Shown here piece after piece: positions 26,190 to 29,734 of a stretch of 64,000 nucleotides of DNA (position 1 is its first letter; the number at the start of each line of letters is the position of its first letter). The notes beneath the pieces are model-generated. The model saw only the letters and a program-made list of their open reading frames with translations, was not told the origin of the DNA and made no database searches. Source of the stretch: a virus (Duplodnaviria; Heunggongvirae; Uroviricota; Caudoviricetes). The position numbers and the translations under genes were made by a program. Location: IMG/VR virus record IMGVR_UViG_2721755710_000007, positions 1 to 64,000 of that record; one strand, written 5' to 3'.

Positions 26190-29100
26190 TCAGAAACGAT
26201 ATTCCACACTCAACATGGCAGATGTATTATGGTATCCATGTTCTCCAAGTTGAATGCCTGCATCAGCCCGGAATGCTACTTCTGGTGTTATCATTCCCAC
26301 AACACCACCATTTATTTCTCCGATATCACGCGCACCATCCTGGTATATACTTACACCATTCATACTGGTGCCGAAAACACGACTATTGTGCAACCAGTGT
26401 GCCTCCACAAATGGTCTGAACGGAACCGCATACCGCGTATTTTTACCGTTTTTGCTGGTAAGCCATGTTCTTGCTCCCAGGCGGGTGAGAATATTTCCGT
26501 TACCGGTATTTTCAATACTGGTTCCGTTACTTTCATGATATTTGTCTGATTTTACATTCATCCGGACAACCTGAAGCTGCGGCTGAACATACCATTCATG
26601 ACTTCCCTTGTAATTGTCGGTAAACTCTCCAGCCTTCCATGAATATCCTGCTTCCAGAGATACCGTAAACCCTTTTGACTTCCATGACTCAGCAGGCAGC
26701 CGTTCTCCATTTATATGATTATCAAACCAGCTGTATTGCAGCCAGCTATCAAGATAAGAACCATTGTGTGTTTCATCATTGGCATACCATGTTGCATAAA
26801 GACCCGCTGTGTATCCATTCATTCTTCCTTCCGAATGGTATCCGGTGCTCAGGGCATTCGTACTGTTATTATTATGACCATAGCCAGCCATCATACCTGT
26901 ATGCCAGCGATCGGTACCATTCAGGCTCCACTGAGCTATATCTCCCCCTATTAACACAACGTAGCTATTCCCCCGGGTTCTCAGCTGACTACTGTTGTCA
27001 CGCCAGCGATTATGTTTTCCTTTATTATACATCCAGATACCTGCTTCATTTTCTTCTCCTGTCATGTGGCTGATATACAACTCCTGTCCCTGTCGTTCAT
27101 ACAGATTCGTTACAAACAGATTATTTGCAGCAGCAATACTGGCAACATAGCTACCTGCCTCAGGACGCAAATTATTATCATGGTTTTCCGGTACAGCTTC
27201 AGGTTGTGGTACAGGAATGTCTTTTCTGCTAATCAGATACCAGTTAGTGCTGTTAATCCCCTGACCACGTTTCAGTATGTAATCATAAGCTCCGGCTGTA
27301 ATACGTTCCGTCTGAATGAATTCAGCATTATCAGCATTGCCACTGACGTGAATCACTTCAATCCCATTAAGTGTCTCTGCACCAGTACCACCGGCCTGAG
27401 TAACAGCGACACGGGTACGGCCACTGGCATTACCTTTAATCACCAGACGATCTGTTTTCGAATTGTCACCACCTGTTTCTGTCTGGAGGAGAATAAGTCC
27501 ATTTCTGCCAGTGTAATTCCCTCCGACAGTCAGTATATTACCCGGCATATATGTAGTGAGATCGACTATACCACTATTGCTCAGATTTCCTGCAACGCCC
27601 CCAAACCCGGAGAGTTTGCCCTGCTCTTCAACAATGACCTGGTTACTGCCGAGCATCACCGGTGAATCTGCGTTCCCCAGTATCACTGTCCCCTGAATAA
27701 TATCTGTCATCCCGGTCCATTTTGCGTTATCGCTAATGTTCAGTGCACCTGCTCCCGTCTTGCGAACATTACCATAACCACTGATATTGTTGGTAAGCTG
27801 CCATGCTGATGTACTGTTCAGAGTTAATGTGCCATAGTTATCAACAAAGGCTGTCCCCAGATTATCAGCCGTGGATACAGCCAAATGAGCCCCCTTATTC
27901 ACGGTAAAAACACCGGAAAAATTACGATTATTACCCGTTATATCAAGCATTCCCCCATTTATGTTCAGAGAACCATCCCCTGCAATAGTACCTGCAGATT
28001 CTCCTCCATTATTCAGTATCAGGCTTCCGCCATGAATGTTCAGCACAGAGCCTGCAGCCGTCAGTAGTTTGCTTATTGTCTGAGGATACCCATTCATATC
28101 CAGTTCTGCGCCACGGGATAAATATAAATACTCAGTCCGACCAAGAGCATCAGGTGCAGCAAGAATTAATACGCCAGATTTAACCTCTGTATTTCCTGTA
28201 TAATTGTTTGTTGCAGAAAGTATAAGAGTACCATTACCTGATTTTGTCAGACTTTTGCCGTCCCAGCCATCATATAATAAAGGTGAAAGATTATCGGAAA
28301 GAGAAACACCTATGTTCAGAGTGGCATCTTTTTCTATATTAAAGGTTCCATATCCCATGCCTTTTGTATTATTCCATCTCAGCATGGAGATCAGTTTGTT
28401 ATCGTCGTCATTTAAAGACGTATAAACATAACTTTCAGCACCTTCTGTCAGTAATACATTGTATTGTACAATGTGACTATTATCAGCGATCGAGATACCT
28501 GTGTCTGACGACAATAATGTGTAATAGTCCTGAGTCCAGTTCTTAATTGATGTGTCTATATTAAGCCATGAATCACTTTTTAATGTAATAGTATTTGCGT
28601 GAACATTAGCATTTCCTACAGACAGGTTCATAGATGCGTCTTCATCAATACTTATATTTCCGTTAAAAATGGAGTTCTTGCCTGACAGATAAACAGATGA
28701 GCCATTCCCAATCATTAGCCCACCATTAATTGCTGTTGCGTTATTGATGTTTTTAATAATTAATTCATTTGTACCATTAACAGGTATACTAGCTAGTTTA
28801 ATATCACCATTAATCACAGAATCTGAATAAATATCTAATGAATTATACCCGCCAGAAAAAATTATTGATGTATTATAAGCATCTTTTTGGCTATTATATA
28901 ATCCTGAAAGATTACCATGATTATTAATATGGATATCTTCTCCATAAACAGAGCAACCACCGTCGGGGCCATATCCCCCCTGAACAATACCGTTATTATT
29001 CAAAGTGATTTGATTTCCAGAAATAGCATCTCCCCCTTGTTTTATTCCATATCCTCCAGATATCATGTTGTCGTTAGTAATGAAAAGATTACTACCATTA

Positions 29101-29687
29101 ATACCATCACCACCGTTTACGCCATTACCGCCCAATATTCCTCCGGAATTATGCACTGTAATATTGCTACCGGTTACACCGGAACCACCTGTCCCACCTA
29201 CATCATCACCTCCGTATATACTTCTGTAATTATCAACTATAATATCATCCCCGCTTAACCCTGCACCTCCGCTACTTCCTGAGCCACCAAGACCATTACC
29301 CCCATATACATTTCTGTAATTGTTTATAGATATTTTGTTGCCACTAACAGCAATTCCACCATTATATCCATCTCCTCCCCAAACACTACCATTATTATTT
29401 AGCGTAAAGTTTTCACCGTAGACACCTGCACCACCGATTGATGTATTGCTTGTTCCTCCTTTGATGTTAATACTGCTTTCAACAGATAGTATATTTTGAG
29501 TATAACTTGTTTTATACGGCACGCTGATATTAAGCGCCGCGTTTCCATCAACACCTGTAATACTCCTGGTTATACTTTTAGGTATACCATTACCATTCAG
29601 TTGTATTGTTTGCGCACCAGAAAAATGAGACTGCACAGAATAAATTATACTGACCAGAAATTGTAAAATTCGTATATTCTTATTCAT
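26190..29687 (-). CDS. autotransporter (type Va) adhesin-like protein (1165 aa)
   Basis: N-terminal signal peptide, Gly/Asn-rich beta-helix repeats, C-terminal beta-barrel ending ...SVEYRF; AT-rich. Confidence 0.8.
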   Translation of the reverse strand: MNKNIRILQFLVSIIYSVQSHFSGAQTIQLNGNGIPKSITRSITGVDGNAALNISVPYKTSYTQNILSVESSINIKGGTSNTSIGGAGVYGENFTLNNNGSVWGGDGYNGGIAVSGNKISINNYRNVYGGNGLGGSGSSGGAGLSGDDIIVDNYRSIYGGDDVGGTGGSGVTGSNITVHNSGGILGGNGVNGGDGINGSNLFITNDNMISGGYGIKQGGDAISGNQITLNNNGIVQGGYGPDGGCSVYGEDIHINNHGNLSGLYNSQKDAYNTSIIFSGGYNSLDIYSDSVINGDIKLASIPVNGTNELIIKNINNATAINGGLMIGNGSSVYLSGKNSIFNGNISIDEDASMNLSVGNANVHANTITLKSDSWLNIDTSIKNWTQDYYTLLSSDTGISIADNSHIVQYNVLLTEGAESYVYTSLNDDDNKLISMLRWNNTKGMGYGTFNIEKDATLNIGVSLSDNLSPLLYDGWDGKSLTKSGNGTLILSATNNYTGNTEVKSGVLILAAPDALGRTEYLYLSRGAELDMNGYPQTISKLLTAAGSVLNIHGGSLILNNGGESAGTIAGDGSLNINGGMLDITGNNRNFSGVFTVNKGAHLAVSTADNLGTAFVDNYGTLTLNSTSAWQLTNNISGYGNVRKTGAGALNISDNAKWTGMTDIIQGTVILGNADSPVMLGSNQVIVEEQGKLSGFGGVAGNLSNSGIVDLTTYMPGNILTVGGNYTGRNGLILLQTETGGDNSKTDRLVIKGNASGRTRVAVTQAGGTGAETLNGIEVIHVSGNADNAEFIQTERITAGAYDYILKRGQGINSTNWYLISRKDIPVPQPEAVPENHDNNLRPEAGSYVASIAAANNLFVTNLYERQGQELYISHMTGEENEAGIWMYNKGKHNRWRDNSSQLRTRGNSYVVLIGGDIAQWSLNGTDRWHTGMMAGYGHNNNSTNALSTGYHSEGRMNGYTAGLYATWYANDETHNGSYLDSWLQYSWFDNHINGERLPAESWKSKGFTVSLEAGYSWKAGEFTDNYKGSHEWYVQPQLQVVRMNVKSDKYHESNGTSIENTGNGNILTRLGARTWLTSKNGKNTRYAVPFRPFVEAHWLHNSRVFGTSMNGVSIYQDGARDIGEINGGVVGMITPEVAFRADAGIQLGEHGYHNTSAMLSVEYRF

Positions 29688-29734
29688 ACTGTTTTTTCTT
29701 TAGTGATGCATTTTTTATCAACCTGGATTTGCCC

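Follow-up and report, generated by a model that had tools for sequence, protein, structure and literature searches.

IS2 and a deleted control region upstream of the adhesin gene aatA on a P1-like phage-plasmid

The DNA described here, referred to as the window, is a stretch of 64,000 nucleotides (positions 1 to 64,000 of IMG/VR record IMGVR_UViG_2721755710_000007) from a P1-like phage-plasmid. It carries an intact copy of aatA, the gene for avian pathogenic Escherichia coli (APEC) autotransporter adhesin A. Directly upstream of this gene lies a complete copy of the insertion sequence (IS) IS2, and the segment in which the native promoter and the FNR control site have been placed is missing. 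The reading preferred here, to which we give a probability of about 0.7, is that an IS2 insertion and a deletion removed the control region of aatA on this phage-plasmid and left the gene with low, FNR-independent expression by read-through. The identity of the gene, the domain architecture of its product, the limits of IS2, the deletion and a surviving intermediate can each be read from the sequence itself.

IS2 and the missing upstream segment

The region between aatA and the next insertion sequence upstream is made up of the following features.

26190..29687, minus strand: aatA coding sequence, APEC autotransporter adhesin A, intact (open reading frame list and protein identity)
29688..29723, minus strand: residual native leader between IS2 and the ATG, 36 nt, GGTTGATAAAAAATGCATCACTAAAGAAAAAACAGT, with a TGnTAAAAA extended -10-like motif (alignment)
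29724..31054, minus strand: IS2 isoform, intact, 1331 bp, right end (IRR) towards aatA, no target-site duplication (termini and domains)
29735-30640, minus strand: IS2 orfB (HTH_Tnp_1/rve domains in orfA and orfB)
30598-31008, minus strand: IS2 orfA (HTH_Tnp_1/rve domains in orfA and orfB)
31055..31168, minus strand: residual upstream sequence of aatA (native -171 to -284), cut off from the gene by IS2 and identical to the upstream regions of pYLMB20b and phi456
31169..31936, minus strand: IS1, 768 bp, upstream boundary of the aatA module (open reading frames and nucleotide matches)

A preliminary description of this DNA had placed IS2 about 35 bp upstream of the start codon, and the gap is exactly 36 nt. 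The element starts with TAGACTGG (also given as TAGACTGGCCCCC) and ends with GGGGCAAATCCA. It has the 1331-bp length, the imperfect 41/42-bp terminal repeats and the orfA/orfB frameshift of IS2, and the programmed frameshift is annotated in sister records. Both of its reading frames are intact, it is oriented in the same way as aatA, and it shares 95-97% identity with copies annotated as IS2 in phage records. The 5-bp target-site duplication of IS2 is absent, with TAAAT at the left flank and GGTTG at the right. IS1 starts 114 bp past the left end of IS2, and the native remnant between the two carries TATACT/TATAAT -10-like hexamers directed into IS2.

The junction was aligned with the copies of aatA that have no IS2 at that place, namely those of pYLMB20b, phi456, ATCC 8739 and APEC O1. 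Homology to the IS2-free copies begins exactly at 29723, and relative to them the window lacks native -170 to -37, a segment of 134 bp. A related state is found on the chromosome of E. coli LR-46, where IS2 (1270-2604 of the examined locus) occupies the same left site, TAAAT is duplicated perfectly and all of the native region follows downstream; the sequence there runs ATAAAT, IS2, TAAATACAGGG. By this comparison, LR-46 holds a surviving copy of the predicted intermediate of the window structure. Because LR-46 holds the precursor state, and the window lacks both the duplication and the 134 bp, the junction is attributed to an IS2 insertion with an adjacent deletion.

The simplest history would therefore have two steps. 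IS2 would first have inserted at native -171 with duplication of TAAAT, which is the state kept in LR-46, and a 139-bp deletion from the right end of IS2 would then have removed the duplicate TAAAT together with native -170 to -37. The idea that a simple right-end deletion turned the APEC O1 arrangement into that of the window was rejected, since the window retains native -171 to -284 beyond IS2. Six records in the E. coli set have the window-type junction at -36, and plasmids with this junction come from fox, goose, chicken and human. It arose once, because all such PLSDB records share the left flank too.

The insertion in the window is one of a series. IS2 lies within ~700 bp upstream of aatA in 53 genomes, and in all of them its right end is towards aatA. 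The positions below were counted by reading the results table together with individually examined loci.

IS2 at -254: about 31 records, the APEC O1 type, in which IS2 is split by ISEc8
IS2 at -62: about 14 records, with a GTATC duplication
IS2 at -36: 6 records, the window type
IS2 at -171: 1 record (LR-46), a simple insertion with the TAAAT duplication
IS2 at -470: 1 record, with an AATGG duplication

These five junction states represent at least four separate events (-171/-36, -62, -254 and -470). A synthetic query with IS2 reversed found no such arrangement, and only the six window-type records matched it, through similarity between the inverted terminal repeats of IS2. Four independent events in the same orientation are suggestive and statistically weak (about p = 0.125, two-sided). 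Mobile elements including IS2 were already drawn upstream of aatA by Dai 2010 (PMC2944236). Neither the single-orientation series nor the promoter-deleting IS2 structure with its surviving intermediate was found in the searchable literature; both are useful annotations and not a new kind of system.

Several further observations concern the upstream regions of other alleles. The aatA genes of LR-46 and GPEC1446, both IS2-linked alleles, are annotated as frameshifted pseudogenes. In the ATCC 8739-type locus and one further locus, the native upstream region extends only to about -250, where a degenerate IS2-like right end (ending in CTGTCTGGAAATAAGGGGGCAAGAACA; ~5990-6036 of the examined ATCC 8739 locus) forms its boundary, so that an IS3-family end marks the edge of even the “native” module. 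Within the 36-nt leader, the alleles of the window, ATCC 8739 and two other loci have A-runs of different lengths (GATAAAAATG versus GATAAAAAATG). These runs, which stand before CAGT or TAGT, read AAAGAAAAA, AAAAAA or AAAAAAA, and may reflect slipped-strand variation near the ribosome-binding region.

Expected transcription of aatA

The control region of aatA has been placed in native copies by prediction and by experiment. In Dai 2010, transcription was predicted to start at -59 and -86, and the promoter was located within -100 by means of a construct that included 100 bp of DNA upstream of the gene; IMT5155 is stated in that work to share the 200 bp upstream of the APEC O1 gene. The idea that this published “native promoter” lay inside IS2 was considered and rejected, because IS2 in APEC O1 stands at -254 and the native region is intact. 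In APEC O1, the oxygen sensor FNR activates an aatA-lacZ fusion and shifts and binds a promoter fragment (Barbieri 2017). The FNR site predicted in the same study (81,838-81,851 in NC_009837) is TTGAGAAAAAACAT, at native -92 to -79. Another sequence, GTGATTAGTATCAA at native -69 to -56, matches the FNR consensus at 9/10 positions and is the sole near-perfect match in the 12-kb locus; with ~0.9 such matches expected by chance per 12 kb, and a position that differs from the site predicted in the FNR paper, it is regarded as suggestive. A fit of GTGATTAGTATCAA to a class II FNR promoter that uses the retained TGATAAAAA was tried and set aside, as the spacing is about 3 bp off, and no claim is made for it.

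A strict consensus scan of the aatA strand found no promoter in the window, in the native copies or in the -62 allele, and was thus uninformative. For this reason, a home-made sigma-70 weight matrix was used, which was checked against the published IS2 junction promoter, Pjunc. In the native copies, the best promoter by this matrix is TTGAGA-17-TGTGAT at -93/-70, which scores 9.8 bits and implies a start near -59, in agreement with the Dai 2010 prediction. This candidate, TTGAGAAAAAACAT and GTGATTAGTATCAA are all inside the segment deleted from the window, and no FNR-like site was found in a search near the window aatA. It had been suggested from the sequence that IS2 could disrupt the native promoter, and the comparison supports this, since the loss of -170 to -37 took away the promoter region along with the predicted FNR site. 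The best site in the 330 bp upstream of the window aatA scores only 2.7 bits, against 9.8 in the native copies.

IS2 is also known to build promoters at its junctions. Pjunc combines a -35 element in the right end of IS2, a strict 17-bp spacer and a -10 element that starts from the second flanking base, and its sequence, TGGAAA-17-TAGACT, scores 8.9 bits by the matrix. The equivalent in the window, TGGAAA-17-GTTGAT, scores 0.2 bits, and its -10 hexamer is without the essential A at position 2, so that the IRR -35 has no -10 partner at 17 bp. The second suggestion made from the sequence, that IS2 could create a hybrid promoter, is therefore not supported. Compared with the IS2 fusion promoters at ampC (Jaurin & Normark 1983) and acrEF, and with Pjunc, the window has the same element in the same orientation as the activating cases; unlike them, it has no required -10 at 17 bp, and the gene's own control region is deleted too.

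No terminator-like sites were found on either strand in 29600-31300. With no hybrid promoter, and no terminator in IS2, aatA is most likely transcribed by read-through only. The sources of this read-through would be the weak, OrfA-repressed promoter of IS2 and the promoter-like TATACT/TATAAT sites upstream of IS2. The most likely state of the window aatA, as we infer it, is thus weak read-through transcription that is no longer controlled by FNR.

A number of points weigh against this reading. The published start sites of aatA are predictions, and the 100-bp construct was carried in pUC18, a setting in which transcription may read through from the vector. The ranking of promoters depends on a home-made weight matrix, in a setting where the strict scan was blank even for the native copies. 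The extended -10-like TGATAAAAA in the retained leader might be the true core promoter or have some activity, and IS2 activates neighboring genes in this orientation (ampC, acrEF). The aatA reading frame is intact in six of the six records with the window junction, which is compatible with continued use; these plasmids are too alike to count as evidence of selection. As to the history of the junction, recombination between two IS2 copies could equally give the same product.

In a rival reading, the IS2 end and the retained leader would form a new promoter, with constitutive, higher aatA expression for which the insertions were selected. IS2 supplies the -35 element of fusion promoters at ampC, acrEF and neoR, every IS2 copy within ~700 bp upstream (53 genomes, at least 4 events) has its right end towards aatA, and the leader keeps TGATAAAAA. 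However, at the working 17-bp spacing the -10 would be GTTGAT (0.2 versus 8.9 bits), and no site at the junction exceeds 2.7 bits. In addition, four events in one orientation give about p = 0.125 for an element that has known target and orientation preferences, and two of the IS2-linked alleles are pseudogenes. A new promoter at this junction is therefore judged unlikely.

A broader version, which we hold to be quite unlikely, would see the repeated one-orientation IS2 insertions (~450 bp upstream) as adaptive rewiring, in which aatA is uncoupled from FNR and transcribed constitutively from the insertion sequence. P1-like transducing phage-plasmids would then be the vehicle by which rewired alleles spread in E. 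coli from poultry-associated, wildlife and human sources, and the aatA of phage phi456 (see below) would explain part of the phenotype seen when that prophage is cured.

The least probable alternative is that the regulatory change is neutral or silencing, with aatA switched off as an intact, unexpressed passenger heading to decay and IS2 as mere IS traffic; it would fit the loss of the promoter region and FNR site, the poor expression in BL21, where the upstream region is also different, an island full of IS1, IS2 and gene fragments, and the frameshifted aatA alleles that occur elsewhere, but some read-through is expected, as no terminator separates aatA from the IS2 genes, the reading frame is intact and the same as in the commonest allele, and the same junction is carried by plasmids from all of the hosts named above.

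The BL21 case comes from Dai 2010, where the upstream region of aatA in this strain was found to be divergent, the aatA transcript low and AatA undetectable. In the E. coli genome set, the BL21 aatA is 99.8% identical, and from this identity and the reported upstream divergence BL21 would share the ATCC 8739-type upstream region. GTGATTAGTATCAA is missing from the ATCC 8739-type variant, and poor expression of aatA is reported for BL21.

The aatA gene and its product

The open reading frame at 26190..29687 on the minus strand, taken from the first start codon downstream of a stop, is uninterrupted over 3498 bp and encodes 1165 amino acids (aa) that end in SVEYRF. The protein is identical to RefSeq WP_001038839.1, the product of the chromosomal copy of ATCC 8739, and matches the AatA of APEC O1 (pAPEC-O1-ColBM) at 1133/1165 positions (97%) without gaps. 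The published length of aatA is also 3,498 bp (Dai 2010, PMC2944236). This near-identity and equal length to the characterized gene identify the reading frame, on sequence grounds, as aatA, an experimentally characterized gene. The description of an autotransporter adhesin-like gene for 1165 aa was thus correct, and it can now be given a name. aatA is present in 687/5426 complete E. coli genomes, in 486 chromosomal and 249 plasmid places, and the window reading frame is identical to the commonest allele.

The layout of the protein is that of a classical autotransporter, with the following parts.

29613..29687, minus strand: predicted Sec signal peptide, aa 1-25, MNKNIR, ILQFLVSIIYSV, QSHFSGA/Q (sequence features and hydropathy)
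28878..29480, minus strand: Gly/Asn-rich passenger repeats with beta-helix-type turns, aa ~70-270 (repeat spacing 25-30 aa)
28041..28562, minus strand: central passenger, IcsA/VirG-related, aa 376-549, including the VirG insertion domain and PATR matches (5KE1, PF22364, PF12951)
27273..27539, minus strand: autochaperone AC_1, aa 717-805 (PF18883 E 6e-24; 3ML3 E 4e-24)
26259..27038, minus strand: 12-stranded beta-barrel translocator, aa 884-1143, with the protein terminus YRF (PF03797 E 1e-34)

By inspection, the N-terminus has a positive n-region (MNKNIR), a 12-residue hydrophobic core (ILQFLVSIIYSV) and a cleavage-type motif, SGA/Q, and a signal peptide was also predicted by Dai 2010. In aa ~70-270, G and N are the most frequent residues and the repeat unit is about 25-30 aa; a search for tandem repeats in aatA found trivial short repeats only. 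Further along the passenger, aa 376-549 match the IcsA passenger structure (PDB 5KE1, E 3e-56), with Pfam matches to the VirG insertion domain at aa 377-434 (the PF22364/PF12951 matches cover this domain and PATR) and to the passenger-associated transport repeat (PATR) at aa 480-508. A type 1 autochaperone, a pertactin-like region, stands at the C-terminal end of the passenger and resembles that of IcsA (3ML3, E 4e-24).

The barrel is complete. PF03797 is matched over its full length (profile 1-254/255, E 1e-34) at aa 884-1143, the generic barrel model TIGR01414 of NCBIfam at E 4e-96, and the AIDA-I beta-domain structure (PDB 4MEE) over aa 711-1165, the C-terminal 455 aa, at E 3e-73. The preliminary description had proposed a signal peptide, beta-helix repeats and a C-terminal beta-barrel ending in Phe, and all three hold: the signal peptide by its sequence layout, the beta-helical passenger by the 25-30-aa Gly/Asn repeats, PATR and homology to 5KE1, and the barrel by its full-length profile and the terminus YRF. 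Lack of a functional barrel domain would have counted against an autotransporter, and PF03797, TIGR01414 and 4MEE leave no such gap. Barrel, autochaperone, signal peptide and repeat passenger together place AatA, from its sequence, among type Va (classical) autotransporters of the AIDA-I type.

Comparison with autotransporter families shows where AatA stands within this group. AIDA-I, the prototype, has a homologous translocator and autochaperone (4MEE E 3e-73; NF033176 E 5e-81 over the C-terminal ~500 aa) and likewise a Gly-rich repeat passenger. However, the NCBIfam AIDA-I score is 273 against a cut-off of 1200 bits, so that AatA is a family relative with a different passenger; the NCBIfam models for AIDA-I, MisL, ShdA and YfaL all give sub-threshold partial matches only. 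The self-associating autotransporters AIDA-I, Ag43 and TibA carry 19-aa consensus repeats, whereas those of AatA are about 25-30 aa. IcsA/VirG of Shigella shares the region at aa 376-549, the VirG insertion domain and the autochaperone with AatA, but the N-terminal repeat region of AatA is unrelated to it and there is no sign of an actin-based motility function or polar targeting.

From knowledge of the family and from published experiments, AatA would cross the inner membrane by means of its Sec signal peptide, after which the 12-strand barrel would insert into the outer membrane. The beta-helical passenger would fold from the autochaperone segment, be displayed on the surface and adhere to chicken cells. 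AatA is expressed in APEC; it enabled a fim-negative strain to adhere to DF-1 chicken fibroblasts, and adhesion to these cells was inhibited by antibody (Dai 2010). The role in chicken-cell adhesion and virulence is known from the literature for the APEC O1 and IMT5155 alleles (Li 2010; Dai 2010, PMC2944236), which have the same gene, length and domain order, and adhesin function in the window copy is presumed by analogy with them.

Earlier work has described the gene, the protein family, IS2 and P1-like cargo plasmids, and the meaning of this locus for basic biology is small; its practical value is modest. As aatA is an APEC virulence marker in polymerase chain reaction and genome typing, the window allele would score positive though its control region is gone.

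The P1-like replicon and its cargo

The sequence of plasmid p22Q34-2 (IncY) matches the window at 100% identity, and the window encodes C1, the pac terminase, Lpa, phd/doc, Cre, Ref, RepA, ParA/ParB and Icd/Ant, as expected of a P1-like phage-plasmid (Punavirus, IncY). Identity to phage P1 is 96-98% up to window position 24181 and ends inside darB. Because P1 homology stops there, the aatA island is taken to be inserted in darB, truncating it. In the darB region (~22365-24296), the 5' part of this anti-restriction gene has given way to the island, and a 643-codon remnant reading frame with no Pfam match is left. The junction between the darB remnant and the island is common to 20 PLSDB plasmids.

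An autotransporter had been called unusual for a P1 backbone. This is true of reference P1, which is without aatA, and does not hold for P1-like elements at large: phage phi456 of APEC DE456 (OR339795.1) carries it, as do the 20 PLSDB plasmids with the same darB junction, and aatA is thus a recurrent cargo of P1-like elements. The AatA of phi456 is identical to that of the window at 1160/1165 aa. Both phi456 and pYLMB20b retain the native upstream region without IS2, unlike the window. The other known settings of aatA also differ: its replicon is a ColBM/ColV F plasmid or the chromosome, and in APEC O1 the split IS2 at -254 leaves the promoter and FNR site intact, whereas in the window IS2 is at -36 and 134 bp are gone. 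P1-like phage-plasmids with cargo, such as RCS47 with blaSHV-2 and phi456, likewise combine a P1 backbone with IS-bounded cargo.

A search of the literature for aatA with phage-plasmid or P1-like found nothing relevant, and carriage of the adhesin on a transducible P1-like element is a route that the searchable aatA literature does not discuss. In phi456, aatA is Orf60 (6974-10471 of the examined locus, OR339795.1), annotated as “hypothetical protein”. The phi456 paper (PMC10967188) reports that curing of the prophage leads to loss of DF-1 adhesion and of colonization, attributes this to type 1 fimbriae, and makes no mention of aatA or any autotransporter. Because phi456 carries aatA under this annotation, its published phenotype may need re-reading. 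If the adaptive rewiring considered above were true, the loss of adhesion and colonization on curing would be due, at least in part, to the unrecognized aatA.

The remaining cargo of the window includes one further feature that travels with aatA.

24795..25330, plus strand: phd/yefM-relE/parE toxin-antitoxin pair (Pfam)

This pair is also found downstream of aatA in ATCC 8739 (truncated), pYLMB20b and PK8217. Chromosomes as well as F-type and P1-like plasmids carry this pair together with aatA, and in the window it is a second addiction module beside the P1 phd/doc. Between the darB remnant and this pair, a segment of about 480 bp (24212-24690) has ~92% identity to thousands of conjugative IncF-type plasmids, where it is unannotated and usually lies at record position 1.3-1.9 kb. 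These matches suggest that the island passed through an F-type plasmid.

Adjoining the adhesin module, one EAL-domain and one GGDEF-domain gene for cyclic-di-GMP turnover (~31963-33958) lie between the IS1 copy at 31169-31936 and another at ~34005-34702, and a separate EAL-domain gene is found at ~19963-20652. The presence of cyclic-di-GMP genes next to an adhesin gene on such a phage-plasmid may deserve attention. Finally, the regions ~35410-36768 and ~39000-41800 contain a phytase-like esterase gene and fragments of IncA/C-type transfer genes (MobI(A/C), TraI-domain), with IS1 copies between all of them, and it is because of these fragments that the plasmid is typed as “mobilizable, MOBH”.

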